Below, in pieces: positions 396 to 53,919 of a stretch of 64,000 bases of DNA (positions within the stretch are counted from its first letter, which is position 1; each line of letters opens with the position of its first letter). The stretch is taken from assembly GCA_023410875.1 (NCBI GenBank), contig JAEYPH010000036.1, forward strand, positions 11 to 64,010, read 5' to 3'. Position numbers and translations under genes: made by a program. This DNA is from Bacillota bacterium. Its GTDB lineage: Bacteria; Bacillota; Clostridia; Christensenellales; UMGS416. Under the pieces are notes generated by a model. The model did no database searches. It worked only from the letters and a program-made list of their open reading frames with translations, and was not told where the DNA came from.

Positions 396-589
396 CTTGC
401 GCCACCTCCGTTGCTTTGTTGTCTTGCAACTTCAGTGTAACGGTTTCTTGACCTTGGTGGGCCTTTTTATTTCCTCTCTGGGCATTTCATTTTACAACTT
501 GCCTTGCGCCAGCTTGTGCTGCGAGTGATCGGAGGATTGGAGGAAGATCATCTATAAACTTCAAAAGGAAGAAATTACACCTGAATGCA

Positions 590-623
590 GCAACGCCCTC
601 TCCCGGCTGGGAGAGGGCGTTGC
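590..623 (-). terminator. GC-rich hairpin downstream of the lipoprotein gene
   Basis: GCAACGCCCTCTCCC-GGCT-GGGAGAGGGCGTTGC, perfect 15-bp stem, 17 nt after the minus-strand stop at 641; moderately T-rich tail on the minus strand. Confidence 0.55.
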
Positions 624-640
624 TCGCGGATACAGCTCCG

Positions 641-1288: not shown

Positions 1289-1485
1289 ACATACGCTCCT
1301 GTCTATATGGCATTATATAATTGGTATTATGTAATATTTGGACGAAAGCCATAATAATTTATACATTTTATTGCCATTGTGTCAAGGGATGAACACGTAA
1401 TTCTCTATTCTTGATGACCTGTGACATGCCCGAGGCTAAACACCTTTCTGTGTGCATAGGTATAGAGATGAAGGGGGCATGATAC

Positions 1486-2718
1486 ATGTTGGGCAGTGCG
1501 GTCATCGTTGTGGCGGAGCTGGGCGTCGGCAGACGCTTGCTGAGCATAGACAAGGGGCATCAACTGGTGGTGCGGGGCGGGGCAGACGCGCCGGTCGTCG
1601 TGGAGAGCCGGCCGGTGACGGACTTCGCCGCGGCAGTGGACCTGCAGGGCTGCCTGCACATCGTGGCATGGCTGCTCAGCCGCCACCTGATGTACTATAC
1701 ATCCACCGACGGCGCGTCCTTCTCCCGCAGCACGCTGCTGAGCGGCGACGGGCAGTTGCGCATCAAGGAGCCCATGATCTGGGCGGACAAGGCCGCCGCC
1801 GTGGCCTATCTGGCCGAGACGGAGACCACCGACACGCTGGTGTGCTACCGGGCGTCCGGCGGCAATTGGGAAGGCCGGCGGCTCTCGGAGGTGTCACTGC
1901 CTGACCGGCTGCTGCCGCTGCAGTTCGAGGGCGGGCCGGGGCTGTCGGTGATTTACAGCATATTCAGCCGCGGGCAGACCACAGTGAGCGCCCGTTCGGT
2001 GGACGGCGGCGCGCCGGAGACCATCGCGACATCCGCCGACGGCATCAGCGATTTTTGCGCTGTGACGACTGCCGGCGTGCGCCATGTGTGCTGGATGTCC
2101 AACGGGTATCTGTTTGCCGACGGTCAGGTGCTCTCCCAGGAGCCGTGGCAGCAATCCAACCCCTATCTGAAGTGGGACGGCGGCGCGCTGCAGTGCCTTT
2201 GGATGGAAAGCGGCCGCCTGTGCGGCGCCACGCTGGGCCGCCAGCGCCAGAGGCTGCAGAGCGTGGAGATCCGCAACCCGCTGCCCTGCCGGCTGGCGCT
2301 GCCGGGCGAGCTGCGCCGCGCCATTGTGGATGGCGCCACATTGCACGAGCTGTTGCTGAGCCCGCAGGAGCCGGAGCGAGGCGGGCAGTCAGCCGCCATG
2401 CCGGTGTCGCCCAGGGGGGCTGGCGCTGCTGCGCCCACGTTGACCGAGGTCGTGCGCAATCAGGCCAGCTACATGACCCGCTTGCAGGAGAGCGTGAGCG
2501 CCTTGGAACGCAACGTGTTACGACTGACCAGCGACGTAAACCGCCTCAGCCGCGAGGTGGCGGCGCTGCTGCGGGCGGACCGCACCCAGCGCGCGGCGAC
2601 CGCCGCCGTGCAGCAGAGCGAACCGGATGCTCCTGCCCAAGTCCCGGCAATCGAACCGGCGCAAGAGCCGCCGGAGCCGTCAGGATCACCTCTGGAGGAT
2701 GCACCGGCCACGGAATGA
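1486..2718 (+). CDS. uncharacterised protein: beta-rich N-terminal region, C-terminal coiled coil, acidic Pro/Glu-rich tail
   Basis: 410-aa ORF with high GC3 and GAAGGGGG upstream of the ATG. No family recognised. C-terminus LTEVVRNQASYMTRLQESVSALERNVLRLTSDVNRLSREVAALL followed by EPDAPAQVPAIEPAQEPPEPSGSPLEDAP. A hairpin plus T-run follows (~2733-2766). Confidence 0.65.
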   Translation: MLGSAVIVVAELGVGRRLLSIDKGHQLVVRGGADAPVVVESRPVTDFAAAVDLQGCLHIVAWLLSRHLMYYTSTDGASFSRSTLLSGDGQLRIKEPMIWADKAAAVAYLAETETTDTLVCYRASGGNWEGRRLSEVSLPDRLLPLQFEGGPGLSVIYSIFSRGQTTVSARSVDGGAPETIATSADGISDFCAVTTAGVRHVCWMSNGYLFADGQVLSQEPWQQSNPYLKWDGGALQCLWMESGRLCGATLGRQRQRLQSVEIRNPLPCRLALPGELRRAIVDGATLHELLLSPQEPERGGQSAAMPVSPRGAGAAAPTLTEVVRNQASYMTRLQESVSALERNVLRLTSDVNRLSREVAALLRADRTQRAATAAVQQSEPDAPAQVPAIEPAQEPPEPSGSPLEDAPATE

Positions 2719-2853
2719 CAGAATGTAAACGAAAAAGTGCCGCTGACCGGAGCGGCGCTTTTTCGTATTGGATTTTTCCGGTGACACAATTGTCATAAAA
2801 TACCATATATCGTACATGATTGACATCATTACAACATATTTACACAACACCAA

Positions 2854-2882
2854 TTGACAAAATACGGGTTCAACTGTAAGAT
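2854..2882 (+). promoter_or_regulatory. sigma-A-type promoter, TTGACA-17-TAAGAT
   Basis: TTGACA 2854-2859, 17-nt spacer, TAAGAT 2877-2882. The -10 ends 6 nt before the ATG at 2889 and there is no Shine-Dalgarno sequence in between. Confidence 0.45.
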
Positions 2883-2888
2883 CTACAC

Positions 2889-4013
2889 ATGTTTACATGC
2901 AAAAAAACCAATGCAACTTGTGGGCGCCTGGCGCTCTCCTTGCTGTTGGCGGTGACGTTGGTCTTGATCCTGGGCACTGTGCCCGCGGTTGCCGCTACCT
3001 CCATCACCTTTACCGCCACACCCACTTTATCCGGCACGGCGGTTCTTTCCCCCGGCGGCACCGACCGCATGGTGTTCCGCTACGACTATACGCTGCCAAC
3101 AGCCGGTCAGGTCACGATAGACATCAAGGTCGGCACGGTGTGGAAGGCCATCTCCAGGGTCACCCAAACCACACCCGGTACCAAGACTTCTGTGTGGAAC
3201 GGCGCAGTAGGCGGCAAAACACTGGCCGTGGGCACCTATCAGGCCCGGCTTACGATGCCCAATGGAAGCAAGACCATCCAGATCAAGATTCTCCCCAAAC
3301 CCACAGCCACGCTGGTCAGCATACAGCCCACGGCTTTCACGGCCAACGGCAGCGCTACCACGCTGATCACCGCCCGCTGGACCCAGTTGTGCGATGTGCG
3401 CATCGACGTGCTCAACGCCTTGGGGGCGCAGGTGCGCAACCTTTACAGCGTCAAAAACCGCGCCGCCAGCACGACACAGGTGTTTTGGAACGGTCGCAGC
3501 GACAAGGGGACGCTGGTGGGCGCTGGCACCTACACGGTACGCCTGATGTGTGGCGGAGCAGCGCCGGTCTATCAAAAGGTCACCGTGCGCACCCAGACCG
3601 CAGCGCCTGCCACCGCTACAGCCGCCGCAGAGCAGCAGAGCCGTCTCGTCGCGCTGGTCAACAGCGCCCGGAAAGCCAACGGATTGAGCGCGCTCACCGT
3701 GAGCAGCTCTCTTACCGCCGGGGCCCTCAAGCACAGCAAGGACATGGCGGCCAACAACTATCTCTCACATGTCTCCCCGACTTATGGCACCATGGCGGTG
3801 CGCATGAAGGCCGCCAACATCTCCTATTGGTGTGCCGGCGAGAATGTGGCCAGAACCAGCAGTGCCGATCGCGCCCATGAGCTGTTCATGGCTTCCTCCG
3901 GTCACCGCGCCAACATCCTCAAGCCCGAGTACACCCACATCGGCGTGGCCTTCGTGTGGAGCACAACAGCCGGGCAATACTACATTACCGAGTGGTTTGC
4001 GGATTTCCAGTAA
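2889..4013 (+). CDS. secreted protein, two FlgD-Ig-like domains plus C-terminal CAP/SCP (YkwD-like) domain
   Basis: Signal peptide LALSLLLAVTLVLILGTVPAVAA. Two repeats of the W.G....G..(L)..G.Y type (SVWNGAVGGKTLAVGTYQARL; VFWNGRSDKGTLVGAGTYTVRL). C-terminus LVNSARKANGLSAL...HSKDMAANNYLSHVSP...GENVA...SSGHRANILKPEYTHIGVA is typical of the CAP domain. Confidence 0.85.
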   Translation: MFTCKKTNATCGRLALSLLLAVTLVLILGTVPAVAATSITFTATPTLSGTAVLSPGGTDRMVFRYDYTLPTAGQVTIDIKVGTVWKAISRVTQTTPGTKTSVWNGAVGGKTLAVGTYQARLTMPNGSKTIQIKILPKPTATLVSIQPTAFTANGSATTLITARWTQLCDVRIDVLNALGAQVRNLYSVKNRAASTTQVFWNGRSDKGTLVGAGTYTVRLMCGGAAPVYQKVTVRTQTAAPATATAAAEQQSRLVALVNSARKANGLSALTVSSSLTAGALKHSKDMAANNYLSHVSPTYGTMAVRMKAANISYWCAGENVARTSSADRAHELFMASSGHRANILKPEYTHIGVAFVWSTTAGQYYITEWFADFQ

Positions 4014-4018
4014 TTGAA

Positions 4019-5020
4019 CTACAAACGCATCTGATGGATATAGGGAACAAAGCCCACGCTCTTCCAGAATGCCATGCCCACGGGGTTGCAGTGGAGCACA
4101 TCCAATGTTACACGGCCGTATTCATCCAAATACCCTGACTTGATTGCCAGGAAAGCAGCCTTTCCAAGCCCCAGCGCTCTGTGCTGGGGCTTTAGCATGT
4201 ATTGGCGCACATACACGCCGCCGGTCTGCGGGAGGTACAGGCAGTAGCCGGCAGCCTCCGCGTTCACCTCTATGATGACGGCACGATATTCCCCGAGCAG
4301 GAAGCCGTTCATGCGCTGGATCAACTGTTCCAGATTCATCGAGTTGTCGCTGCCCTCATCCAGGATCAGCTGTAGATTCATCTGGGCCAGCATCGGCGCA
4401 TCCTCCGCTGTGGCGGCGCGCAGCGTGAAAGGCGGCGTTGCCCGCGGCGCAAGCGCCCGCAGGCCGGCCTCATAGGCCCGGCGCAGCGCATCCTGGGGCA
4501 GGTTGGCGGGGGAGGAGATGCCCTCGGCATGCACCCGTGCGCCGCAGTGGATGCCCAGATGGCCGAAGAAGTGCTGCATCGTGTCCAGCAGGGCGTGGTT
4601 CTCCGCCGCGTTGCGGCCGGCGCGCACGGCGATGGCGATGCCCGCCTTGCCCTGGGGGAAGGCGCTGCCGCCGGGCCTGGTGTCGCACAGGGGCAGGCAG
4701 CGGTCTATGAAGGCCTTCATCTGAGCCGTCACATCGCCCCAATAGGAGGGGCTGCCCACAGCCACCACGTCGGCCTGGGCCAGCTTGCGCAGTAGAGCAG
4801 CCATATCGTCGCGCTGGGCGCAGGGCCCTTCGTCGCAGGCGTTGCAGCCCAGGCATGGCCGGATGCGCAGCGCGCCCAGATGCACGGTCTCCGGCAGGAT
4901 GCCGGCGTCGGCCAGGCCTCGGGCCGTCTCGGCCAGCAGCGCTGCGGTGCTGCCCCGGGGGTTGGGGCTGGCGCACAGCAGCAGTGCGCGCTTCATGGGG
5001 CGGGTTTGCTCCTCGCTCAT
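4019..5020 (-). CDS. fusion protein: iron-sulfur-flavoprotein-like flavodoxin-fold domain plus C-terminal GNAT acetyltransferase
   Basis: Start trimmed to MSEEQTRPMKRALLLCASPNPRGST (track ORF 4019..5230 has an implausible N-extension overlapping the upstream gene). N-domain has NADPH-FMN-reductase/Isf features including CLGCNACDEGPC (CX2CX2CX4C). C-domain (RAATAEDAPMLAQMN...YMLKPQHRALGLGKAAF...) is GNAT-like. The ATG overlaps the upstream stop (ATGA). Confidence 0.8.
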   Translation of the reverse strand: MSEEQTRPMKRALLLCASPNPRGSTAALLAETARGLADAGILPETVHLGALRIRPCLGCNACDEGPCAQRDDMAALLRKLAQADVVAVGSPSYWGDVTAQMKAFIDRCLPLCDTRPGGSAFPQGKAGIAIAVRAGRNAAENHALLDTMQHFFGHLGIHCGARVHAEGISSPANLPQDALRRAYEAGLRALAPRATPPFTLRAATAEDAPMLAQMNLQLILDEGSDNSMNLEQLIQRMNGFLLGEYRAVIIEVNAEAAGYCLYLPQTGGVYVRQYMLKPQHRALGLGKAAFLAIKSGYLDEYGRVTLDVLHCNPVGMAFWKSVGFVPYIHQMRL

Positions 5021-6900: not shown

Positions 6901-8613
6901 TTAGTCGGCCACGGTGACGTTGTAGCCGGCGTCACGCAGCAGCTGGCGGGCAGCTTTGCAGTCGGCGGCGTAGTCATCGGAGATGCCGATCAGGTTGCCA
7001 GCGTTGCCCTGGAAGTCAGAGCCATCGGCATCGGGCACGCCCGGGGGCACGAAGCCCTTGGCCGGAATGGCGCTGTTCTGGGCCACATCGATAACGCTCA
7101 GGCGGTCGATGGCGAAGGACAGAGCCTTGCGGAAGTTGAGGTCCTTCAGGGCTTCGATGTCACTGTTCATGTTGATGACATAGAAATAGGTGCCCATGGT
7201 GGCCTTCAACTGGTAGAAACCGGCGTCCTTCATGCGCTGGGTCTCGGCCGGCGGGAAGGATTCGGTGAGGTCCAGTTCGCCGGCTTCGAAGGCGGCCAGG
7301 AAGGCGGCGTCGTCGTTGCCGAGCTTGTAGTTGAGGGTCAGATCGCTGACGTTGGCAGCGTTCCAGTAGGTGTCGTTCTTGACCAGAACCAGTTCGCTGT
7401 TCAGGTCAAACTTGCTGACCTTGCGGGGGCCGTTGACGACGTAGGAGGCGGGATCGGTGGCCCACTTTTCCTTGTACTTTTCGACGATGTCCTTACGGAC
7501 GGGGGACAGCGTGGGGAACGCGGTCAGCTGCGTGAAGTAGTTCGTGGGGCCTTCCAGCGTCACTTCCAGCGTCTTGTCGTCCTTGGCCACGACGCCCAGC
7601 TCTTCGGGCTTCATCTCGCCATTGGTGATCTTCTGGCCGTTCTTCACGTACCAGACCTGATAAGCGTACTCGCACTCGGAGGCGGGATCGACAGCGCGCT
7701 GCCAGGCATACACGAAGTCGCCGGCCACAACGGGCTTGCCGTCGGACCACTTGGCGTCACGCAGGTGGAAGGTCCAGGTCAGGCCGTCGGCGGAAACATC
7801 CCACTTCTCGGCCACGCCGGGCACGATGCCGCCGGTCTTGTCCTTGGCGGTCAGGCCTTCGAAGGTCTGCTGCACGACGTTGGCGCCGCTGGTGTCGTTG
7901 TTGAGCTGCGGGTCGATGGTCTTGATCTCACCGATGCCGTAGTTGACGGTCTTGCTCTCGCTGGTGGCCCAGGTGAAGATCAGGTTGCCCAGCAGCGTGT
8001 CGTGGACGGTGTCCTTGACCTTGCCGTTGTCGAGATACTGGTTGGTATAGTGATAGATCGGGATGATGGGCAGATCGGCCATGATGGTCTTCTCCGCCTC
8101 GTGCATGGCGTCCATGCGAACCTTCTGGTCGAAGGAATCCTTGGCGGTCTTGATCAGCTCATCGTACTTGGGGTTGTTGTACTTGGCGTCGTTCTGGCCG
8201 CTGTTGGAAACCCACATGTCCAGGAAGGTCATCGGGTCCACATAGTCGCCCAGCCAGCCGTGGCGGGAGATCTCGTAGTTGCCCTTGGTGCGGTTGTCCT
8301 GCAGCGTGGCGAAGTCCTGGTTCTCCAGAGTGACTTCCAGACCCAGAGCGGTCTTCCACATGGCCTGAATGGCCTCGGCGATGGCCTGGTGGCCAGCGTT
8401 GGTGTTGTAGACCAGGGTCAGCTTGGGGAGTTCCTTGAGCTCGGCCGGTGTGGGCGTCGCTTCAGGGGTGGCGGTGGCTTCGGGTGTGGCCGTTGCCTCG
8501 GCGGTGGTCGCGGCGGCGGACGAGGGGGCCGTGCTAGCGGCGGGACCCTGGCAGCCGACGAGAGCGCCTGCGAGCATCAGCAGCGAAACCGAGAGAGCCA
8601 GCAGTTTCTTCAT
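6901..8613 (-). CDS. ABC transporter substrate-binding lipoprotein, family 5 (peptide/nickel, OppA/DppA/NikA type)
   Basis: MKKLLALSVSLLMLAGALVGC lipobox, then a Thr/Ala/Pro/Glu linker with the tandem EATATPEATATPEATPTP, then a typical SBP_bac_5 body. AAGGAGGAAG RBS. Confidence 0.9.
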   Translation of the reverse strand: MKKLLALSVSLLMLAGALVGCQGPAASTAPSSAAATTAEATATPEATATPEATPTPAELKELPKLTLVYNTNAGHQAIAEAIQAMWKTALGLEVTLENQDFATLQDNRTKGNYEISRHGWLGDYVDPMTFLDMWVSNSGQNDAKYNNPKYDELIKTAKDSFDQKVRMDAMHEAEKTIMADLPIIPIYHYTNQYLDNGKVKDTVHDTLLGNLIFTWATSESKTVNYGIGEIKTIDPQLNNDTSGANVVQQTFEGLTAKDKTGGIVPGVAEKWDVSADGLTWTFHLRDAKWSDGKPVVAGDFVYAWQRAVDPASECEYAYQVWYVKNGQKITNGEMKPEELGVVAKDDKTLEVTLEGPTNYFTQLTAFPTLSPVRKDIVEKYKEKWATDPASYVVNGPRKVSKFDLNSELVLVKNDTYWNAANVSDLTLNYKLGNDDAAFLAAFEAGELDLTESFPPAETQRMKDAGFYQLKATMGTYFYVINMNSDIEALKDLNFRKALSFAIDRLSVIDVAQNSAIPAKGFVPPGVPDADGSDFQGNAGNLIGISDDYAADCKAARQLLRDAGYNVTVAD

Positions 8614-8674
8614 TGGACTTCCTCCTTGAGTTTTTTATGCAAAAGGTTTCCCTTAGGCATTCGCGTTGTTGTGG

Positions 8675-9652
8675 TCACTTGACCATGTGGCAGGCCACCA
8701 GGTGGTCCTCACCGTGGGCCACCAGCGGCGGCATTTCCTTGTGGCAGATGTCGCCGGCATATTGGCAGCGGTTCACAAAGGGGCATCCCGGCGGTGGATC
8801 GATGGGGGTGGGCACGTCGCCCTGCAGAATCACGCGCTGGCGGCGGGCTGCCTCGTCGGGGTCGGGAATCGGTATGGCCGACAGCAGCGCCTGCGTATAG
8901 GGATGCAGGGGCTTGGCATACAGCTCCTTGCTGGGCGCGATCTCCATGATATGTCCCAGATACATGACGCCCACGCGGTCGGAGATGTGCTGTACCATGG
9001 ATAGGTCATGGGCGATGAACAGGAAGGTAAGGCCCATGTTGCGCTGCAGGTCTTGCAGCAGGTTGATAACCTGGGCCTGGATGCTGACATCCAGCGCGGA
9101 GATCGGCTCGTCGCACACGATGAAATCGGGGCTCACGGCCAAGGCGCGGGCGATGCCGATGCGCTGGCGTTGGCCGCCGGAGAATTCGTGGGGATATCGG
9201 TTGGCGTGCTCCTCGTTGAGGCCCACGCTGCGCAGCAGCTCGATGACACGCTCTTGGCGCTCGGTGCCCTTGGCTAGCTTGTGGATATCCAGCGACTCGC
9301 TGACGATATCGGTGACGGTCATGCGAGGGTCCAAGGACGCGTAGGGATCCTGAAAAATGATCTGCATCTTGCGACGGTACTGAAACAGTTGCCTCTCGCC
9401 CAAGTGGGCGATGTCCGTACCGTCAAAAAAGATCTTGCCCGCTGTGGGCTGATACAGGCGGATGATCGTGCGGCCCACGGTGGTTTTGCCGCAGCCGGAC
9501 TCGCCCACCAGGCCAAAGGTCTCGCCCTTGTAGATCTGGAAGGACACATCATCCACAGCCTTGAGCATGCGGGGCCGGCCCAAGCCTCCGCCTACTTTAA
9601 AGTATTTTTTCAGGTTTTGGACCTCTATTAGGGCCTGCTTTTGCTTAGCCAT
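8675..9652 (-). CDS. Opp/Dpp-type ABC transporter ATP-binding protein (OppF-like)
   Basis: Walker [10 protein letters not shown], signature FSGGQRQR, Walker [14 protein letters not shown]-terminal oligopeptide-transporter extension. Confidence 0.92.
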
Positions 9653-10671
9653 CAGACACGTGCTCCTTTAAGATATCCCTCGGGCTTGGGGGCTTCGGGG
9701 TGCGTCAGCCAGCATGCGGCCCGATGTCCGGGAGAGACTTCGATGAGATCCGGGCACTGGTTGCGGCACAGGCGCATGGCGTACTGGCAGCGGTCGGCGA
9801 AGGGGCAGCCCTTGGGCGGAGCGATCAAATCCGGCGGCTGGCCGTCGATGGGCACCAGGCGTGACTTGTGCTCCGTGTTGATCTTGGGGATGGATTTAAG
9901 CAGGCCTTGGGTGTAGGGGTGGGCAGCGTGATAAAAAATGTCGCGCTTCTCACCCTCTTCAGCGATGATGCCGGCATACATGACCTTGATGACGTCACAG
10001 AAGTCGGCGATGACACCCAAGTCGTGGCTCACGAGGATGACCGAGGTGTTCACCTTGGCACGCAGATCCTTCATAAGCTCCATGATCTGTGCCTGAATCG
10101 TAACGTCCAGCGCCGTGGTGGGCTCGTCGGCCAGCAGCAGCAAGGGGTCGCAGGCCAGAGCCATGGCGATCATGACGCGCTGGCGCATGCCGCCGCTGAA
10201 TTCGAAGGGATACTGCTTGACGCGGTCGGCTGGGCTGGGGATGCCAACCATCTCCAGCAGCTCGATCGAACGGTCCAGCGCCTGTTTCTTGCTCATTTGC
10301 TTGTGCAGCCGCAGCGACTCGGAAATCTGGTTGCCCACGGTATAGGTCGGGTTCAGCGACGTCATGGGGTCCTGAAAGATCATCGAAATGTCGTTACCGC
10401 GGATGGAGCGCATTTCCTTATCGGTCTTTTTCATCAGGTCCTGCCCCTGGAAGCTGATGCTGCCTTCCACGATGCGGCCGGGGTTGGGCACCAGGCGCAG
10501 GATGGACAGGCTCATGACGCTTTTACCGCAGCCGGATTCGCCGACCAAACCCATTGTCTGGCCGCAGTTGAGATCCAGATCCACGCCGCGCACGGCCTGC
10601 ACCACACCAGATGGCGTGAAGAATGATGTCTTGAGTCCCTTTATCTGTAAAAGCGGTTGATTGTTGCTCAT
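9652..10671 (-). CDS. Opp/Dpp-type ABC transporter ATP-binding protein (OppD-like)
   Basis: [29 protein letters not shown]; C-terminal Cys-containing extension (CPFADRC). Confidence 0.92.
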
Positions 10672-10687
10672 GATTCCTCCCGGTGCC

Positions 10688-11680
10688 CTACTTGCGCATG
10701 TGCGGATCCAAAGCGTCCCGCAGGCCGTCGCCCATAATATTGAATGACAGAATTGTGATGGAGATGGCCGCGACCGGGAACAGCAGCTGATAGGGGAAGC
10801 TGCGCAGCGAACCCATGGCGCTGCTGGCCAAGGAGCCCCAACTGGACATTGGGGCGCTGACGCCCAGGCCGATGAAGCTCAGGAAGGCCTCGGTGAAGAT
10901 GGCCGAGGGGATGGACATCATGACCATGACGATGATCTGGCCGATGACATTGGGCACCAGGTGGCGCAGGATGATGCGCATGGTGCCGGCGCCCTGGGTC
11001 TTGGCGGCGAGGACGAACTCCTGGCCCTTTAGCTGGAGCACCTGGCCGCGGATCATGCGGGCCATGCCCACCCAGTAGACCATGCCCAGCACCAGGAAGA
11101 TCATGAAAAGATCCGGCCCGATGCCGCTGAACGGTTTCAGGAAAGCCGACTTTTCAAAGGCATCCTCCATACCCGTCTTGAGCGTGACGCGCAGCAGAAT
11201 AACGTACAACAGCAGCGGCACAGCATACAGAATATCCACAATACGCATCATAAAGTTGTCGAGCTTGCCGCCATAGTAGCCGGAAAGGCCGCCGTACAGC
11301 ACGCCGATGGTCAGGTTGATGATGCTGGCCACGATGCCGATGGACAGCGAAATGCGCGCGCCGTAGATGACGCGAATGAACAGATCGCGGCCCAGATTGT
11401 CGGTGCCGAAGATGTGCTGCAGCGTAGGCGCCATGTTGCGATAGGTGCGGTCCTGCTGATCGTAGGTATAGGGATAGAAGAACGGTATCACGACGGCTGC
11501 GACGAAGATCACGATGAGTACGATGGATGAGATCATCGCGGGCTTATGACGGGCAAAACGCCGGCGGGCATCCTTCCAATACGTCACAGAAGGGCGCACA
11601 GCGCCAAACTTCTGCTTTTCGTCCTCTGGAAGGGGTTCAAATAGGGTGGGATCGATCTGCATGTTACTCCTCCTTGCCAC
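10688..11680 (-). CDS. Opp/Dpp-type ABC transporter permease (OppC-like)
   Basis: BPD_transp_1-type permease with N-terminal OppC-like extension; multiple TM segments. Confidence 0.9.
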   Translation of the reverse strand: MARRSNMQIDPTLFEPLPEDEKQKFGAVRPSVTYWKDARRRFARHKPAMISSIVLIVIFVAAVVIPFFYPYTYDQQDRTYRNMAPTLQHIFGTDNLGRDLFIRVIYGARISLSIGIVASIINLTIGVLYGGLSGYYGGKLDNFMMRIVDILYAVPLLLYVILLRVTLKTGMEDAFEKSAFLKPFSGIGPDLFMIFLVLGMVYWVGMARMIRGQVLQLKGQEFVLAAKTQGAGTMRIILRHLVPNVIGQIIVMVMMSIPSAIFTEAFLSFIGLGVSAPMSSWGSLASSAMGSLRSFPYQLLFPVAAISITILSFNIMGDGLRDALDPHMRK

Positions 11681-12602
11681 CGGTCAGCTTGATGCGCGGA
11701 TCGATGAAGCCGTAGGCAATGTCAACCAGGAAATTCAGGAAAATCAGAAGCGCGGCGTCCAGTATCGTGACGCCCATGATCATCGTGTAGTCACGGTTGG
11801 TGATGCTGTCTACGAAGAATTTGCCCATGCCTGCGATGCTGAACAGCTGCTCGATGACGAAGGAGCCGGTCAGCAGGCCGGAAAGCATGGGGCCCATATA
11901 CGTGACTACGGGGATGAGCGCGTTCTTGAGCGCGTGCTTGCCGATGACGCGGAACTCGGACAGGCCCTTGGCCCGGGCGGTGCGGATGTAATCCTGGCGC
12001 GTGACATCCAGCATGGAGGAGCGGGTCAGGCGCGTGATGAAGCTCAGCGAATAGGCGGACAGCGCGACCACCGGCAGCACCAGCGTCATCGGATTGGTCA
12101 TCTTGCCTGAGAGCACGGGGAACCAGCCCAACGATACGCAGAACACATAGATGAGTAGAATGGCAATAACGAAATTGGGAATCGTAACGCCCAGCGTCGT
12201 CAGCAGCATCGTCGTGTAATCCTGCCATTTGTTCTGTTTAAGCGCAGAAAAAACACCCAGCGGCACGGCTATGAGCAGTGTGAGAAGAGCTGCCAATACG
12301 CCCACACGGGCGGTGACGGGCAGGCCCTGCACGATGATCTCGGTGACGGAACGGCCCTTCACGCGGAAGGACGGGCCGAAGTCACCGTGGAATATGCCGA
12401 CCATGTAGTCGCCGAATTGCTTGATCAGAGGGTCATTGAGGTGATACTTCGCTTCCAGCGCCCGCAAAATTTCGTCGGGCAGCTTCTTCTCGCCGGCGAA
12501 AGGACCGCCGGGAATGCTGTGCATGAGTACGAAGGTCAATGCGGTGATGACAAATAAAGTCAGTATCATGGCAAGGAAGCGCTGTAACGTGTATTTTAGC
12601 AA
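11664..12602 (-). CDS. Opp/Dpp-type ABC transporter permease (OppB-like)
   Basis: MLKYTLQRFLAMILTLFVITALTFVLMHSIPGGPF is a typical OppB/DppB N-terminus; overlaps the next permease gene by 17 nt. Confidence 0.9.
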   Translation of the reverse strand: MLKYTLQRFLAMILTLFVITALTFVLMHSIPGGPFAGEKKLPDEILRALEAKYHLNDPLIKQFGDYMVGIFHGDFGPSFRVKGRSVTEIIVQGLPVTARVGVLAALLTLLIAVPLGVFSALKQNKWQDYTTMLLTTLGVTIPNFVIAILLIYVFCVSLGWFPVLSGKMTNPMTLVLPVVALSAYSLSFITRLTRSSMLDVTRQDYIRTARAKGLSEFRVIGKHALKNALIPVVTYMGPMLSGLLTGSFVIEQLFSIAGMGKFFVDSITNRDYTMIMGVTILDAALLIFLNFLVDIAYGFIDPRIKLTGGKEE

Positions 12603-13022
12603 GGAATGTGCCCCCCGTTCTGTCGCGCAACCGCCATGTAAACATATGAGGATATGGCATTGCGATTTGCGATGTTCGACATACAGAGTATCATAATTTA
12701 CACTTTACATCAATATGCAATGACGTCTATTTTTCATTGCGTTTTTTGTTGGGTAAATAAATTATGCTAACCCAGGTATATTCGGTTTTTAAGCTGACGG
12801 ATGAAAGAATGCTGGGAATTTTTAGTACGTTTGGCCAACTCAACAGCTATGGAAATGCGCATATTGGTTTATATTATTGCAGCGTCGTTTATATTATGCA
12901 ACAATTTGCAGGCAAAGAGCTTGTTTCTTTCATATTATAAGCAAAAACCTGCATAGCGCAAAGGGCGATTTTGTGATACTGTCACAGGGTGAGGACAATG
13001 TTATCTATACCTTGGAGGGAAA

Positions 13023-30436: not shown

Positions 30437-31060
30437 ATGGGAGTCGCGCTCATCGCGGGCGGCATTCTTCTTTTGCTAATCGCATTTATCATGACGGCGG
30501 AACTGCGCTCATCCATCACGGTTGTGGCTGGACGGGGTGGGGTGTGGCTGCGCTATGCCACAGGCTTGTGGAGCTGCCCGCTCATCGGCGTACAGCTGCG
30601 CTGGATGTTGGGAGGGCGGCCCCGGGCTTGGCTGGAGTTACCTTGGGCCACGCATCCCGTAAGTGCCTCTTTCGATAAAACGCTCAGAGGCCTCAAGGGG
30701 CGCAAGAGTAAAATCAAGCCGGTAAACATCCCGCTCAAGGCTGTCTTTGATCTGGTCAGCCGCTTTCGGGTGCTCAGATTTGATTTCCGCCTGAAGTTGG
30801 GTGTGGCTGACAACGCCGCCGCAACGGCACTTCTGTGCGCCGCTTCACTTTCGGCGGCCCAGGCCGCGCGAATGGTGCTGGCTCGCCAAAGCGGCGAGCG
30901 TCCCTTGGGCATGGTTCAGGTGAAACCATTGTTTTCCGGCGGTGGCGTGTCTTTGCGCTTTGCGTGCATATGGAGCGTTAAAGCCAGCCATATTATCTGG
31001 GAACTGTTGAAGGCATATGCATCATCAAAGGAGGATTTACATGGGAACCCATCCGATTGA
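30437..31060 (+). CDS. YtfI-like (DUF2953) sporulation-associated membrane protein
   Basis: N-terminal TM helix, repeated hairpin-like body, and position immediately upstream of a ytfJ/gerW homolog as in Bacillus ytfI-ytfJ. Confidence 0.65.
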   Translation: MGVALIAGGILLLLIAFIMTAELRSSITVVAGRGGVWLRYATGLWSCPLIGVQLRWMLGGRPRAWLELPWATHPVSASFDKTLRGLKGRKSKIKPVNIPLKAVFDLVSRFRVLRFDFRLKLGVADNAAATALLCAASLSAAQAARMVLARQSGERPLGMVQVKPLFSGGGVSLRFACIWSVKASHIIWELLKAYASSKEDLHGNPSD

Positions 31061-31604
31061 GAATATCATGCAGACGACGATGGAGAGCATCCGCAACATG
31101 GTGGATGTCAACACGATTGTCGGCGATACCGTGGTCATGGGCGACGGTACCGTCATCATACCGATCTCCAAAGTCAGCTTTGGCTTTGTGGCCGGCGGCG
31201 GAGAATATGCCGGCAGAGATAGCGGTGGCCAGCAGGGCGGAGGCGGACGCCAACAGGAGCAGCCTGCGCCCAAAGGGGATTATCCCTTTGCCGGAGGAAG
31301 CGGCGCCGGCGTCAGCGTGAGCCCCATGGCCTTCCTGGTCGTTAGTGAAGGCAGCGTGCAACTGCTGCCGGTGCAGTTCAACAACGCCTGTGAGCGCATG
31401 CTGGAACGGGTGCCCGACTTGCTCTTTGAGCTCAAGCACCTGTTCACCGGCGATCATGGAGATGACAATCGCGGGGAAGGCCATAAGGATAAGGGCAAGG
31501 ACAGGGAAGAGGAGAAACCCAAGCACCGCTGGGGGCGCGGCGGGGACGAAGCGGATGGAGGGGCTCAGGACCCCAACCTGAGACCTGCGAAAGATGAGCT
31601 CTAA
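31041..31604 (+). CDS. ytfJ: GerW/YtfJ-family sporulation protein with Gly/Gln-rich insertion and charged C-terminal tail
   Basis: Start trimmed to MGTHPIENIMQTTMESIRNMVDVNTIVGDTVVMGDGTVIIPISKVSFGFVAGGGEY (AAAGGAGG RBS). Confidence 0.85.
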   Translation: MGTHPIENIMQTTMESIRNMVDVNTIVGDTVVMGDGTVIIPISKVSFGFVAGGGEYAGRDSGGQQGGGGRQQEQPAPKGDYPFAGGSGAGVSVSPMAFLVVSEGSVQLLPVQFNNACERMLERVPDLLFELKHLFTGDHGDDNRGEGHKDKGKDREEEKPKHRWGRGGDEADGGAQDPNLRPAKDEL

Positions 31605-31710: not shown

Positions 31711-31743
31711 GGATGTTTGAACATGTTTATTAGGAGACGAAAG

Positions 31744-32970
31744 ATGCCTGCGGGCATATGCCAACCTTCGTTCAGTCGTGTTCTGCCGCCCGCGAATCAA
31801 TCGCTTGGGCGGCTGCCGGCTGTTTCCATATCCCTCAAGTGGCGGATGTTTCTTTCAGCAACAATGGCGGCTCTTCTAATTTTCGGCTATAATGGAGCAA
31901 CGGCCCACGCGGCGCCCGCGACCAGCGCTCAGTCCGCCGTGGTTATGGAGCAGTCCAGCCGCCGGGTGCTCTTCCAGAAGAACGCCCACCAGCCTCTGCC
32001 CATGGCCAGCACGACCAAGATTATGACGGCGCTGGTGGCGTTGAAGCATGGCCATCTGGACGACCGCGTCAAGGTAGGTCCCCACGCTGCCGGCGTGGAG
32101 GGCTCATCCATCTATCTGAAGGCCGGCGAGACCTGGACGCTGGAGCAGCTGCTCTTTGGCCTGATGCTGCAGAGCGGCAACGACGCCGCCGTGGCCATCG
32201 CCGAGCATGTGGGCGGCAGCATGGATGGCTTTCTGGCGCTGATGAACGACGAGGCCGCCAAGCTGGGCGCGGTGGATACCCATTTCGCCACAGTCAACGG
32301 CCTGGACAAGGCCGGCCATTGTACCAGCGCCTACGATCTGGCGCTGATCACCGCCGCAGCCATGGATGATGCCGACTTCCGGCGCATCGTGGGCAGCAAA
32401 AGTGCCGTGATCGGCGAGGGCGACGTGCGCCGCGCCATCCCCAACAAGAACAAGCTGCTGTGGCGGATGGACGGGGCCAACGGCGTCAAGACCGGATACA
32501 CGAAGGGCGCGGGCCGCTGTTTTGTGGGCGCGGCACAGCGCGGCGGCATGCAGCTGATCGCCGTGGTGCTCAACTGCGGACCCATGTTTGAGGATTCGCA
32601 GGCGCTGATGGAGGATGCCTTCGCACGCTACTCCATGGTGACTGTGGCGCTGCCCGGCCTGGTGCTGGGAGAGGCGCCCACCGAGCAAGGCCAGCGCGGT
32701 ACCGTGCGCTATGGATTCGGCCACGCGCTCGCGCTGCCTCTGGACACCGAGGAGCGCCGCAGGGTGGCTGTGCAGGTGGAATCCCCCGGCGCCGTGGAGG
32801 CTCCGATCGCCGAAGGCCAGCCCATAGGCCAGGCCAAGGTATATCTGGATGGAGAAGAACTGCGAACAGTGGAACTGGTCGCCTTGCAGGATGAAAAGCA
32901 GCGCACATGGCGCTGGTACGCAGATCGTTTGGTGGAGGGGATGTTATGGAGGGGGAAGGACAGTCCGTAA
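31744..32970 (+). CDS. serine-type D-Ala-D-Ala carboxypeptidase (PBP5/DacB-like)
   Basis: SxxK (ASTTKIMTAL), SGN (LQSGNDAAV), KTG (VKTGYTKGAG), C-terminal PBP5_C-like domain. Start uncertain: ATG 31744 has a GGAGA RBS; alternatives are 31717 and 31846. Confidence 0.88.
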   Translation: MPAGICQPSFSRVLPPANQSLGRLPAVSISLKWRMFLSATMAALLIFGYNGATAHAAPATSAQSAVVMEQSSRRVLFQKNAHQPLPMASTTKIMTALVALKHGHLDDRVKVGPHAAGVEGSSIYLKAGETWTLEQLLFGLMLQSGNDAAVAIAEHVGGSMDGFLALMNDEAAKLGAVDTHFATVNGLDKAGHCTSAYDLALITAAAMDDADFRRIVGSKSAVIGEGDVRRAIPNKNKLLWRMDGANGVKTGYTKGAGRCFVGAAQRGGMQLIAVVLNCGPMFEDSQALMEDAFARYSMVTVALPGLVLGEAPTEQGQRGTVRYGFGHALALPLDTEERRRVAVQVESPGAVEAPIAEGQPIGQAKVYLDGEELRTVELVALQDEKQRTWRWYADRLVEGMLWRGKDSP

Positions 32971-50595: not shown

Positions 50596-50639
50596 AAACA
50601 CGAATATTAATTTGGAAAAGGATTAAAATGTTCGTATTT
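50596..50639 (-). promoter_or_regulatory. pair of inverted PurBox-like sequences (candidate PurR operator)
   Basis: Minus strand reads AAATACGAACATT (12/13 to AWWWCCGAACWWT), an 18-nt spacer, then the inverted AAACACGAATATT (10/13). The pair ends ~13 nt upstream of the -35. Confidence 0.5.
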
Positions 50640-50664
50640 GAATCTACGGAGGGGTAATGCTGGC

Positions 50665-51714
50665 TTACCACTGCATCGCTGCCAGTGCCAGTTTGATCTC
50701 CGCGCGCACGGCGTCATCCTTTTCGGCTTCCAGCGCTGTGCGCAACGCATCCTCAGCCTCATGACCGCCCAGCCGGCCCAGCGCCCAGGCGCTGTGGCAG
50801 CGTGCCACCTGGTTTGGGTGCTCCAGCAGCAGCTCTGCGAGCGCGGGAATCAGCGAACGGTCGCCGCTGTTGCCGGCTGCCAGCGCGGCCTGCGCCTGCA
50901 GGCGGTGTTTGCGGGCAAAATTGGCTCCGACGGCGCGCTGGAGTGCCTCCACCGCTTCTGGTCGACCGCGCAGCAGGCTTTCCAGACCGCAGGCCTGCAA
51001 CACCTCCTCGGGGATGCGCTGCACTTGGGCGTCGGCGTGGGGGCAGGACAGCGTGCATTCGGTGCAGCCCAACAGCCGGGCGCCCATGGCCTCGCGCAGC
51101 TCCATGGGCACGGCTTCGGCGCCGATCATGTGATGGCGCAGGCAGCGCAGCCGGTCAAAGCTTCCCTCGCTGAGCGCACCGGTGGGGCAGGTTTGCACGC
51201 ACAGGCCGCAGCCTTCGCAGGTGCGGTACGGCGCATCCTGCACGGGCAGCGGCGCGTCGGTGAGCACCAGGTGCAGGCTGACCAGCACGCCCAGTTCTTC
51301 GTGGCAGAACTGCTGATTCTGGCCTTGATATCCCAGCCCGGAGCGCAGCGCGGCGGCGCGGTGGGGCAGGGGCGGGTTGGCCAAAGCCCGGTGACCCCGC
51401 TCCCGCAGCCATTGGGACAGCGCTTCGGCACGGTCATGGCCTGCGTTGGATGCCGTGTAATAGTTTGCGATTTCCCCGCTGCCCTGCGGCCAAGGTTCAA
51501 AGGCGTCATACCGGCGCACGCCCACGACGATGGCCCGGGCTTCAGGCATCAGTTCCCGAGGGTCACCGCGCAGGCGCTCCTTGAGAGCATCCCACGCTGC
51601 GCGGGACCACTCTTCAAAGGGCAGCGCCGAGCACAGCCCCACGTCGTCAAAGCCCAGCGCCTGAGCCTGGGTGCGCAGCGCACCCAGCAGTTTATCATCG
51701 GTTGCGTTTTTCAC
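50665..51714 (-). CDS. queG: epoxyqueuosine reductase-like 4Fe-4S protein with C-terminal HEAT repeats
   Basis: GTG start with GGAGGT RBS. CEGCGLCVQTCPTGAL and CTECTLSCP ferredoxin motifs. C-terminal HEAT-like ALAAGNSGDRSLIPALAELLLEHPNQVARCHSAWALGRLG. Confidence 0.7.
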   Translation of the reverse strand: MKNATDDKLLGALRTQAQALGFDDVGLCSALPFEEWSRAAWDALKERLRGDPRELMPEARAIVVGVRRYDAFEPWPQGSGEIANYYTASNAGHDRAEALSQWLRERGHRALANPPLPHRAAALRSGLGYQGQNQQFCHEELGVLVSLHLVLTDAPLPVQDAPYRTCEGCGLCVQTCPTGALSEGSFDRLRCLRHHMIGAEAVPMELREAMGARLLGCTECTLSCPHADAQVQRIPEEVLQACGLESLLRGRPEAVEALQRAVGANFARKHRLQAQAALAAGNSGDRSLIPALAELLLEHPNQVARCHSAWALGRLGGHEAEDALRTALEAEKDDAVRAEIKLALAAMQW

Positions 51715-51780
51715 AGGCGGGGGACCTCCGGCATAAATTGCTCATGGACAAGACTCAGTTTGAGAAAAGGAGGGAATAAC

Positions 51781-51981
51781 GTGTCCGCAAATGCGAACCT
51801 GCCCATTGATACCGGTTGCGACGGCGAAGTCCAGGGCGCCAATACCTCGTTGCTGTTCTTCTTCCTGCTGTTGGTGATCATCTTCTCCAACTGCCCGTTC
51901 TTTGACGGCGACGGCGACACCCTGCTGTTCTTCTTCCTGCTGCTGGTGTTCATCTTCACGGAGTTCTGCGACTTCTTCTAA
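51781..51981 (+). CDS. unannotated small ORF (66 codons): tandemly duplicated Phe/Leu-rich double-TM peptide
   Basis: AAAGGAGGG 7 nt upstream of GTG 51781. Product VSANANLPIDTGCDGEVQGANTSLLFFFLLLVIIFSNCPFFDGDGDTLLFFFLLLVFIFTEFCDFF. By my count 58 of 66 codons end in G/C in this frame, against roughly half for the minus-strand ORFs listed over the same DNA. Confidence 0.6.
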   Translation: MSANANLPIDTGCDGEVQGANTSLLFFFLLLVIIFSNCPFFDGDGDTLLFFFLLLVFIFTEFCDFF

Positions 51982-52059
51982 GAGGCACAAAAGACCACCT
52001 GAAACAACATACCGACTACATGCAGGCGACGGTAATTCTACCGCCGCCTTGTTATTGCG

Positions 52060-52437
52060 CTACTTACGGTTGTTGCGGAAGGCCGAGGCCATCAGCAGAG
52101 CGCCGGCCACCACCATCGCCACCGGCACGAAGAACCACAGGTTCACATGCAGCACAGCGGTCACGATCAGATACAGGCCGAAGAGGATCAGCGCGGAGCT
52201 GAACCATAGCGACAGCTTGCGGCCATCCACCTGGTGGGCGCGTTCGCCGTCGGGCGCTTCCATCACGAACATCAGGATGAAATAGAGGATCACGGCGGGT
52301 ACGAGCATCGTGGGGATGGCAACCAGGCACCACAGCACGCGCATCAGCGTGGCGTCCATGCCCAAATACTCGGCTAACCCCGCACACACGCCGAACACCA
52401 CGGCATTGCGGGAACGGGCAAAGCGCTTTGTGTTCAT
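52060..52437 (-). CDS. PspC-domain membrane protein
   Basis: Start trimmed to MNTKRFARSRNAVVFGVCAGLAEYLGMDATLMRVLWCLV (AGGAGG RBS); three further TM segments. Confidence 0.85.
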   Translation of the reverse strand: MNTKRFARSRNAVVFGVCAGLAEYLGMDATLMRVLWCLVAIPTMLVPAVILYFILMFVMEAPDGERAHQVDGRKLSLWFSSALILFGLYLIVTAVLHVNLWFFVPVAMVVAGALLMASAFRNNRK

Positions 52438-52530
52438 AGCGGCCTCCTGTCTGCGAGCGCCTATGAGCGCCCAAGATATATCTTGATTATGCATCACCGC
52501 GGTGCGCGGGCGCAAGGGGTTCTTTGCATG

Positions 52531-53919
52531 TCAACGGTGGGCCATGCCCCGGCTCAGCGACTGCCACAGCGCTTCGGCGCCGAATTCCAGCCGCCACACC
52601 GCGGCCCCGGCCAGCGCGTTGAAGGCCAGCAGCCTACCCTTGAGCTCCAGAGAAGGCGCGTCGTCGCAGTAGATGACCCGCAGCACGTTTTCCGCGTCCA
52701 CGAAGGCGTAGCGCGTCATACCCTTGTTGGGCATCCATGTGCCTTTGTTCAGCCAGTATTGCACCTGGACCTTGTTGCCGCCGGACGTATAGGACTCCTC
52801 GGCCAGCAGGGATGCGACCTGGGCCGGCGTGGCTGTCCTGCGGGTTTTGGATTTGGTCAGCTCCGGGAGCTCCTTGAGCGTTTCGCCCTCGGGCACGTCA
52901 AATGTGTATTCCACGCCAAAGAACGGTATGCCCATGAGGATGCGGTCTTCGGGCACCTGGTCCAGCATCCTGCGCATCTTGTCCGCGACCCAGTCGATGG
53001 CGGCCACAGGTTCCAGCGCCGGGTTGTCATAGGCCATCACACACACATAGTCTGCCGCCTGCCCTAAGCCCCGGCGGTCATAGCACTGCCACCAGTTGTT
53101 CGGGTCTTCGTTGGCCAGCGGCACCGTAACGTCCACGGAAATGACAGTGCCGGGAGGCAGGTCTTTTTTTGCTCGTGCCACGAAGGCCGTGAACTTCACC
53201 TTGTCCTTGGGGTCCATCTTTTCAAAATCGAAGTTGATGCCGTCCAGCCCCAGCGTGCTCACGAAAGTGCTGAGCCTGGCATAGAAGGCATCCTGTTGCT
53301 CCTTGTCATTGACCAGCGCCCAGGAAAGGTCCGGGTCAAAGCTGACCACCGAAGCCCACACCTTCGCGCCGCCCGCGTGGGCGGTCTGGATGTATTGCAC
53401 CGGGTCCCAGCCGTTCACCTTGCCCTCCAGCAGGGTGTTCAAGTCGTTGACGACGGCCTGGCCGTCGGCGTCCTTTTCCACATAGAACCACGTGGGTGAC
53501 AGCACATTTACGCCCGGGGGCACTGCGTTGAGCTTTTTGGGCCGGTATTGCCAGGCCAATGTCAGCTGCGGGGGCCGCGCGGCCAGGGGCACGCGGGTGT
53601 TGCCATAGTCCATGCCCGAGGGTGTCCAGGGCTCTTTGACCTCCTGCGGGCGGATGCCCGCGGCGTTCAGCGCCTGCACATACCAGCTTAGCGGCGACAG
53701 TTTGCGCACGGTGGCGTTCTGGCCGATGGCCTGTCTCACAATGCGATCATAGCCGCCTCTGGTTTGGCCCAACGCGCCGCCCGCGCTCAGCAGCATCACC
53801 GCCGCCAGCATCGCCGCGAAGGCCGGCACCGCCCAGTCCGGACCCTTCGGCGTTACATTTTGGAGTGCCGGTTTGTGCCCTTTGCGGCCTCTCTGAGGTT
53901 TTTGCAGGTTAATTCCCAT
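52531..53919 (-). CDS. membrane-anchored glycoside hydrolase family 18 protein (YaaH/YdhD-like)
   Basis: GH18 catalytic motif LDGINFDFE; N-terminal TM anchor AVPAFAAMLAAVMLLSAGG. Start set at ATG 53919, which has no SD but has TGTTATAAT ending 6 nt upstream. Confidence 0.75.
   Translation of the reverse strand: MGINLQKPQRGRKGHKPALQNVTPKGPDWAVPAFAAMLAAVMLLSAGGALGQTRGGYDRIVRQAIGQNATVRKLSPLSWYVQALNAAGIRPQEVKEPWTPSGMDYGNTRVPLAARPPQLTLAWQYRPKKLNAVPPGVNVLSPTWFYVEKDADGQAVVNDLNTLLEGKVNGWDPVQYIQTAHAGGAKVWASVVSFDPDLSWALVNDKEQQDAFYARLSTFVSTLGLDGINFDFEKMDPKDKVKFTAFVARAKKDLPPGTVISVDVTVPLANEDPNNWWQCYDRRGLGQAADYVCVMAYDNPALEPVAAIDWVADKMRRMLDQVPEDRILMGIPFFGVEYTFDVPEGETLKELPELTKSKTRRTATPAQVASLLAEESYTSGGNKVQVQYWLNKGTWMPNKGMTRYAFVDAENVLRVIYCDDAPSLELKGRLLAFNALAGAAVWRLEFGAEALWQSLSRGMAHR

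Follow-up and report, generated by a model that had tools for sequence, protein, structure and literature searches.

What is the 66-codon open reading frame (ORF) that lies antisense between queG and a pspC-like gene on contig JAEYPH010000036.1 of a Clostridia genome (assembly GCA_023410875.1): an accident of G+C-rich DNA or a gene, and if a gene, what does its small and extremely hydrophobic product do? We addressed this question by a computational analysis of a 64,000-nt stretch of the contig, referred to here as the window, and of homologous loci in other genomes and metagenomes. The ORF is almost certainly a real gene. Its product belongs to a conserved, sizeable, and undescribed family of one- or two-unit hydrophobic, Cys-bearing peptides of spore-forming Clostridia, and, judging from sequence, we lean toward reading it as a membrane-hairpin protein of the spore envelope that would be made late in the mother cell under σK and would be the clostridial counterpart of YjcZ. 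The coding sequence and its ribosome-binding site are as follows:

51781 to 51981, plus strand: coding sequence of 66 codons plus TAA, with a GTG start; product MSANANLPIDTGCDGEVQGANTSLLFFFLLLVIIFSNCPFFDGDGDTLLFFFLLLVFIFTEFCDFF
51766 to 51774, plus strand: Shine-Dalgarno (SD) site AAAGGAGGG, with a 6-nt spacer to the GTG at 51781

Translation of the plus strand from 51781 to 51981 gave exactly the peptide reported in a preliminary description of this DNA. That description was right about an SD site before the GTG, but the spacer is 6 nt rather than the 7 nt it gave. Its count of 58 G/C-ending codons among 66 was reproduced on recounting. It had contrasted this figure with two minus-strand ORFs said to be near 50% G+C at third codon positions (GC3), which is true of the ORF at 51742 to 51990 (0.46) but not of that at 51711 to 51959, whose GC3 is 0.78 as a whole and 0.88 over the overlap with the small gene because its third positions are common to the plus frame. 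GC3 alone therefore cannot pick the strand, and we rejected it as a discriminator. Codon usage separated the frames: with a model trained on 18 confident genes of the window, the log-likelihood was +52 bits for the plus frame versus +5.3 and +6.1 bits for the frames of the two antisense ORFs. In “Bacillota bacterium OH_PDB_213” (L011), the closest genome among the matches listed (89% identity), the small gene shows 12 synonymous and 6 nonsynonymous differences, giving a ratio of nonsynonymous to synonymous substitution (dN/dS) of 0.13. Compared with the homologue at L003, dN/dS is 0.34, and all four differences within the first hydrophobic repeat are synonymous. As possible counterevidence, the preliminary description had named orthologues with stops in the plus frame or with a conserved minus-strand frame; we found the plus frame open in 30 of 30 family genes examined, while the antisense frames were all stopped in 24 of these 30. 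The peptide core is kept in genes of 26 to 42% G+C, in which the Leu codons TTA, TTG, and CTA replace CTG, and the protein is kept in genes from 26% to 55% G+C. These data uphold the plus frame as the coding one, and purifying selection together with protein conservation across the G+C range excludes a chance ORF.

The ORF had been called unannotated, which holds only for the ORF track used at the time; the exact protein (P0001) is present in the gene calls of public assemblies (loci L001 and L002). As had been stated, it also forms the in-frame tail of a 447-residue ORF (50638 to 51981) antisense to queG. This longer frame is the usual antisense-ORF artifact of 61% G+C DNA, with a real gene in its tail. 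A simple GC3-based gene picker favors it (50638 to 51981, plus strand) over the true queG, which occupies 50665 to 51714 on the minus strand and carries Fer4_16 and HEAT_2 domains and a TIGR00276 match.

How widespread is the protein? A word-index search of 5.8 billion proteins returned 204 relatives, and a profile search of 1.84 billion cluster representatives (50% identity) returned 325 clusters at an E value of ≤1e-3, 125 of them at ≤1e-10. Almost all of the 325 representatives are 40 to 100 residues long. The window protein itself scores 89 bits against the family profile (E = 7e-21 over 1.84 billion proteins). Composition was analyzed in an alignment of 33 sequences, designated A1, and in a motif survey of 217 proteins (188 two-unit and 29 one-unit). 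The family motif consists of one or two copies of D-S/T-LLFFFLLLVIIF-(C/S)NC; across A1 and the 217 proteins, the module reads as a D-S/T cap, the core L-L-F-F-F-L-L-L-V-(I/V)-(I/L)-F, and then (C/S)-N-C-x-x-F. We defined the family as proteins of ~27 to 90 residues in total with one or two modules of the form [D/x]-[S/T]-LLFFFLLLV-x-x-F plus (C/S)-N-C-x-x-F, and residues 22 to 41 and 46 to 59 of the window protein fit this definition. In each unit, conservation reaches at least 94% at 8 or 9 of the 12 core positions. N37, C38, F41, and D46 either do not vary in A1 or are conserved to at least 90%; in the lineage of the window, S replaces the first C of the stub (SNC). The loop between modules measures 11 to 13 residues in 181 of the 188 two-unit proteins. 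One-unit proteins, of 27 to 50 residues, come from Tissierella and metagenomes, as exemplified by MTQRGFDDSLLFFFLILVIIFCNCDFF from Tissierella.

The family ranges over Clostridia (Natronincolaceae-like genera, Tissierella, and uncultured Bacillota). Named carriers are Alkaliphilus, Natronincola, Clostridium aceticum, Serpentinicella, Anaerovirgula, and Tissierella, and these genera form spores. Tandem paralogues are common, with three in Serpentinicella and at L016 and two in C. aceticum and Anaerovirgula. Cultivable carriers include Alkaliphilus oremlandii (strain Clos; gene at ~2.634 Mb of CP000853), C. aceticum (CACET_c03890 and a tandem neighbor), and Serpentinicella alkaliphila. Contig scans with the family alignment confirmed at least 10 genome loci and at least 6 metagenome loci, bearing in mind that so short and low-complexity a query confirms poorly. 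Searches of Pfam, NCBIfam, PHROGs, and PDB sequences with the window protein and other members gave no family match, the only hits being subthreshold compositional ones to PhrA_Strep, the transmembrane (TM) domain of VEGFR-2, and ETRAMP. Neither the motif LLFFFLLL nor TIGR01732, used as search terms, retrieved papers in the searched literature. Database names of members are “hypothetical protein,” plus one automatic “Sporulation protein YjcZ” (UniRef entry, P0063).

The hydrophobic units of the window protein are located as follows:

51850 to 51885, plus strand: hydrophobic unit 1, LLFFFLLLVIIF (residues 24 to 35), preceded by the N-cap T-S and followed by S-N-C-P-F-F; AlphaFold2 (AF2) helix 17 to 37
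51922 to 51957, plus strand: hydrophobic unit 2, LLFFFLLLVFIF (residues 48 to 59), preceded by D-T and followed by TEFCDFF; AF2 helix 45 to 65

The protein contains no K, R, or H among its 66 residues and has a net charge of −8. Its module, present in two copies, is made up of a helix N-cap (D/T-S/T), a 12-residue core of LLFFFLLLV(I/F)IF, and an Asn-Cys stub, and an acidic, Cys-bearing loop of 11 to 13 residues connects the copies. The Kyte-Doolittle maximum over 19 residues is 2.36 for each unit. With A1 as the input alignment, AF2 returned a helical hairpin in which a short loop joins the two helices, with a mean predicted local distance difference test (pLDDT) value of 67, a predicted template modeling (pTM) score of 0.40, and block means of 76 to 83 over residues 21 to 60. 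Most likely, the two modules fold into a hairpin of antiparallel helices that is buried in a membrane. Across the family, K and R average 1.9 per protein in the N tail and 0.9 in the C tail but only 0.5 in the loop, where there are 2.7 acidic residues and 1.7 Cys per protein; this distribution suggests that the N and C tails are probably cytoplasmic and the acidic Cys loop lies on the far side. A bacterial lipoprotein was rejected: the N terminus has no K or R, and the residues before Cys38 are F-S-N, which do not make a lipobox ([LVI][ASTVI][GAS]C).

The 36-nt direct repeat described at the DNA level, with 3 mismatches and a 72-nt period, was found as reported at 51850 to 51885 and 51922 to 51957. 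The internal duplication that it had been taken to indicate is real, as the two-unit form, but ancient: one-unit relatives exist, and the distribution of the two-unit form indicates an old event common to several orders. The 92% DNA identity of the two copies (33 of 36 nt) arises because the peptides are identical and codon bias is strong, CTG making up 70% of Leu codons and TTC 70% of Phe codons in the window genome. Given the ancient protein repeat and this bias, recent duplication or gene conversion was rejected as the origin of the DNA repeat.

When would such a gene be expressed? Upstream of the SD site, two elements were predicted:

51711 to 51715, plus strand: predicted σK-type −35 element TCACA (family consensus k-m-A-C-m), overlapping the complement of the queG GTG start (51712 to 51714)
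51732 to 51740, plus strand: predicted σK/σE-type −10 element CATAAATTG (consensus CATAnnnT[A/G]), 41 to 49 nt upstream of the start codon

The preliminary description had noticed a CATA-type, −10-like sequence at about 51732, which is the CATAAATTG listed above, and had speculated that a mother-cell σ factor might recognize it. Comparison across the family made this speculation the best supported of the new points. The pattern AC-N16/17-CATA was present in 20 of 27 nonredundant family upstream regions, with CATA 40 to 76 nt before the start, versus 4 of 86 control upstream regions taken from other ORFs of the same loci; shuffled upstream regions gave a mean of 1.7 matches and a maximum of 7 in 1,000 trials. 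The motif search imposed AC and CATA but not the k, m, and m flanks or the T of the −10 element. The nonimposed positions are nonetheless nonrandom (−35, k-m-A-C-m; −10, CATAnnnT(A/G), with T at position 8 in 20 of 20) and agree with the σK logo. In full, the family motif reads kmACm-N15/16-CATAnnnT(A/G), and in the window it takes the form of TCACA, 16 nt, and then CATAAATTG. Among loci checked later, it was found at L027 and L029. The full motif occurs twice on the two strands of the 64-kb window (128 kb), and 1.9 occurrences are expected by chance, so the chance of one within 150 nt of this particular start is ~0.002. Promoters of σE and σK have the same −10 element and differ in the −35 element, which is ATA for σE and AC for σK (PMC3789822), and a cited C. 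difficile σK promoter combines AC and CATATAAT (PMC3789822). For B. subtilis, a gap of 15 ± 1 bp between the 5-nt and 10-nt blocks is optimal (PMC517825); the window, with TCACA, a 14-nt gap, and GGCATAAATT, stands at the lower bound of this spacing. Overall, the motif makes it likely that the small gene is σK dependent.

Two other readings of the upstream DNA were discarded. A σ70 scan matched TTCACA-18-TAAATT (9 of 12) on the same bases, and the family-wide conservation of CATA and AC fits σK better. A SpoIIID-like box, GGACAAG at 51746 to 51752, was dropped, L011 having GGATAAG there. The initial transcribed region, 10 to 25 nt past the −10 element (51743 to 51757 in the window), is conserved as (A/T)T(G/A)AG(A/G), often appearing as AATGAGAC or ATTAAGACTAGAGA in family loci and as CATGGACAAGACTC in the window; it may be a mark of the transcription start or an element of the 5′ untranslated region (UTR). 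The second motif match in the window (12649 to 12677, minus strand; GAACA-N15-CATATCCT) is followed after ~47 nt by an Opp/Dpp-type ATP-binding cassette (ABC) transporter operon (first gene onward, 6901 to 12602, minus strand), and with about two matches expected by chance, it may mean nothing.

The remaining expression signals were also compared among homologues, whose genes are monocistronic units. AGGAGG-type SD sites stand at the matching place in nearly all of them, and hairpins with T runs, typical of terminators, directly follow the stop codon in most. In AT-rich genomes, TTC accounts for 66% of the Phe codons of family genes versus 17.5% in long neighboring ORFs, rising to 81% within FFF triplets (L006 to L025), and 24 of 30 family genes contain no T run longer than 5 nt. 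These features point to selection that favors high expression, disfavors T homopolymers, or does both. At the 3′ end of the window gene, one candidate was located:

52022 to 52057, plus strand: intrinsic terminator candidate, a G+C-rich hairpin (core 52025 to 52048) followed by TTGTTATTG

Immediately beyond this candidate, at 52060, is the stop codon of the pspC-like gene, which converges on the small gene. L011 retains the stem but differs in the loop, and the 84-nt stretch containing the hairpin folds modestly better than shuffled versions (z = −1.4). A scan with a consensus terminator model did not report the hairpin (52022 to 52052). The hairpin and the TTGTTATTG tract probably end the small gene, which, with a predicted promoter of its own, a strong ribosome-binding site, and this predicted terminator, appears to be monocistronic.

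The window also contains a gene for a GerW/YtfJ family sporulation protein (31017 to 31604, plus strand; TIGR02874, 157 bits against a cutoff of 116), and the host is therefore an endospore former. Adjoining that gene, at 31717 to 32970 on the plus strand, is one for a D-Ala-D-Ala carboxypeptidase (Peptidase_S11 and PBP5_C). In the role that we propose, the late mother-cell σ factor σK would drive transcription of the small gene, and the protein would be made in the mother cell during assembly of the coat and outer spore layers. Its role there would be structural, that of an abundant small membrane protein in the spore envelope, at the interface of the outer forespore membrane and the coat, with its cysteines available for cross-links or metal contacts. 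The σK-type promoter, the strong translation signals, the optimized Phe codons, the multiplication of the gene, and the conserved cysteines lead us to this envelope-peptide reading. We infer its four components, namely, σK dependence, the membrane hairpin topology, the envelope location, and the role.

Several points weigh against this proposal. The hydrophobic cores are only 12 residues long, which is short for a bilayer span, and AF2 confidence is moderate. Very hydrophobic segments of 10 to 12 residues can still insert in a membrane, with hydrophobic mismatch as the price. The window protein has no positive residues, so that the positive-inside argument holds for the family and not for this member. 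For every family member, σK dependence is predicted from the promoter motif, and 7 of the 27 nonredundant upstream regions lack this motif (two of these genes lie downstream in tandem arrays), as does L028, one of the three loci checked later. Avoidance of long T runs offers an alternative cause of the TTC bias. Genomic neighbors are not conserved beyond close relatives, and no partner or pathway can be deduced from them. The family searches were seeded on the hydrophobic motif, which inflates its apparent invariance. Finally, a generic membrane-anchor role does not explain the near-invariance of a purely hydrophobic 12-mer.

How does the family relate to known small sporulation proteins? A likeness to the YjcZ-type tiny-TM peptides of Bacilli had been suggested, and it stands as an analogy but not as homology. 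Against TIGR01732, the NCBIfam model of the YjcZ family (“tiny_TM_bacill”; cutoff, 21.35 bits), neither the window protein, nor the 33 A1 members, nor 7 further members (3 one-unit and 4 divergent) gave a match at an E value of ≤10, whereas a YjcZ-like positive-control peptide scored 54.6 bits (E = 6.4e-15). Membership in the YjcZ family was thus rejected, the relation being that of a proposed functional analogue and not of a homologue. Both families consist of a tiny, very hydrophobic helix unit with Gly- or Cys-containing flanking stubs, occur as several paralogues per genome that are often clustered, and belong to endospore formers. B. cereus AH187, for instance, has five YjcZ paralogues (PMC8313275). 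YjcZ is σK dependent, B. subtilis yjcZ being in the σK regulon (PMC517825), and the family described here carries a σK-type promoter motif that would fit the same timing. The two differ in the core: here it is LLFFFLLLVIIF, capped by D-S/T and followed by a CNC stub, and in YjcZ it is of the FALIVVLFILLIIVG type. They differ also in architecture, YjcZ having a single hydrophobic helix whereas the 66-residue window protein, like most members, has two units, and in distribution, YjcZ occurring in Bacilli and the present family in Clostridia.

SpoVM and CmpA of B. subtilis provide a second comparison, as small mother-cell proteins with a function at the surface or membrane of the forespore while the envelope is being assembled (PMC10730256). 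SpoVM is a 26-residue amphipathic surface-binding helix and CmpA a 37-residue regulator, and both are σE dependent. The window protein, in contrast, has two fully hydrophobic cores, Cys motifs, and a −35 element of the σK type (AC and not ATA).

Other explanations were weighed. One retains the spore envelope and the σK stage and supposes an unrecognized, Clostridia-specific peptide class whose paired 12-residue Phe/Leu helices would form a defined oligomeric assembly. A defined assembly would explain the residue-by-residue conservation across orders and in both repeats, which a generic anchor does not. It might be a hairpin of short span whose effect on the outer forespore or mother-cell membrane is to thin, seal, or perforate it; alternatively, it might be a hydrophobic layer, cross-linked through Cys, that determines how hydrophobic the spore surface is. 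We put this idea forward tentatively, as a possibility with perhaps a modest chance of being right.

Less plausible, and in our judgment unlikely, is a holin-like peptide for mother-cell lysis, a late σK product that would thin or perforate the mother-cell membrane and aid spore release. The same σK-type promoter evidence applies to it, and 12-residue cores imply a hydrophobic mismatch with the bilayer. The protein also resembles class II holins (those with two TM domains) and pinholins, which are ~65 to 95 residues long, in its 60 to 70 residues, its two hydrophobic helices, and its inferred N-in/C-in topology. Unlike these, however, it has no PHROG holin match at an E value of ≤0.09, it lacks the charged C-terminal tail typical of holins, and its context is chromosomal and probably developmentally regulated, with no linked endolysin. 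No murein hydrolase recurs beside the gene in 10 contexts. The single nearby lysis cassette, at L008, is part of an inserted prophage that the reference genome lacks. A strong SD site, optimized codons, and up to three tandem copies would, moreover, be unusual for a lethal effector.

In a type I toxin-antitoxin pair, an antisense RNA restrains a small hydrophobic membrane toxin. Such a toxin would account for the size and hydrophobicity of the protein and for paralogues in tandem, and the antisense position of the gene within a co-directional, operon-like string makes antisense transcripts plausible in the window. Against this, conservation across orders far exceeds that of type I toxins, and what is conserved is a developmental-type promoter and not one for σA. 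The SD site is consensus-like and exposed behind a short 5′ UTR, most homologues lack the antisense arrangement, and neither a conserved antisense promoter nor a conserved antisense RNA was noticed. An Rfam search over 51000 to 52600 at an E value of ≤1 gave no match, so that no RNA element explains the region. We regard a toxin as very improbable.

Equally poor are the prospects of a secreted or modified peptide precursor (a quorum signal or a ribosomally synthesized and posttranslationally modified peptide [RiPP]) with the cysteines as modification sites. The CNC and C-terminal Cys motifs are indeed conserved, and 8 of the 33 A1 members weakly matched PhrA_Strep. The best of these matches had an E value of 3.8e-4, but all fell far under the 40-bit cutoff and were limited to the hydrophobic stretch. 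No modifying enzyme, protease, or exporter recurs beside the genes, and the invariant part is the hydrophobic core, whereas RiPP cores and signals vary.

An attenuator leader peptide or a chance ORF in G+C-rich DNA antisense to queG is scarcely credible: the Phe and Leu codon runs do resemble those of pheL and leuL leaders, and the ORF is the tail of an antisense artifact, but a single predicted terminator after the stop codon is followed by the convergent pspC-like gene, leaving nothing downstream to regulate, residues other than Phe and Leu are conserved (the D-S cap, N37, C38, F41, and D46), homologues stand in unrelated contexts, and the purifying selection and protein conservation described above effectively refute both. 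None of the holin, toxin, precursor, and leader or chance explanations accounts well for the residue-by-residue conservation of a purely hydrophobic 12-mer.

Returning to the locus itself, the small gene is antisense-nested in the minus-strand string GH18-pspC-queG-flavin adenine dinucleotide (FAD) protein-purA, between pspC and queG. At L003 (5702 to 6316), its place is shifted by one gene, and it stands between queG and the gene for the FAD protein. The SD site of queG (CCTCC on the plus strand, 51724 to 51728) lies inside the spacer of the predicted small-gene promoter. With the −35 element over the queG start and the queG SD site in the spacer, queG must be transcribed from within or across the small-gene region, and transcriptional interference between the two genes is possible.

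Distant homologues occupy unrelated gene contexts, and we recorded the following at individual loci. An aspartate kinase gene lies near the family genes of C. aceticum and Serpentinicella. YkuD and PPDK genes lie near those of L027 and L028, the YkuD (L,D-transpeptidase) domain genes adjoining or close to the family gene at 5284 to 6636 of L027 and 7344 to 8765 of L028. B. subtilis ykuD appears together with yjcZ in a list of the σK regulon (PMC517825), and the proximity of YkuD to family genes may be a coincidence. In L008, a metagenome contig of the Alkaliphilus oremlandii type, positions 1 to 4840 hold a prophage tail and lysis module (Baseplate_J, Holin_BhlA, and Amidase_2) whose end is ~160 nt from the family gene, on its upstream side. 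Different genes occupy this place in the reference genome (L007), and L008 may represent a prophage integration site beside a family gene. L027 also encodes, at 4693 to 4869 on the plus strand, a neighboring 58-residue, two-unit hydrophobic Gly/Asp/Cys peptide of another sequence type, MLNDLLQGFTKGGNGTILLILVLLLLFGGDLGDCFCGGGFDDNILFIFLIIFLIGGIF. In NCBIfam this peptide matched only PA2779_fam (E = 9.8, 6.3 bits), which is not meaningful, and no σK-type motif was found for it. Its sequence hints that further families of such peptides may exist in Clostridia.

It is routine for small hydrophobic proteins to be overlooked or to remain labeled “hypothetical,” and beyond C. difficile the late sporulation of Clostridia is poorly charted. 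The work defines a family of ~325 clusters that no curated library covers and offers a regulatory assignment for it in the form of a predicted σK-type promoter in three quarters of members. Tiny sporulation membrane peptides are already known, so the class is not unprecedented; the residue-level invariance of its Phe/Leu helix is an unusual case in membrane-protein evolution. The family is tied, by analogy and not by homology, to the uncharacterized YjcZ peptides of Bacilli. Should the two families serve the same purpose, peptides of this tiny, hydrophobic kind would be an overlooked general late-stage ingredient of endospore envelopes.

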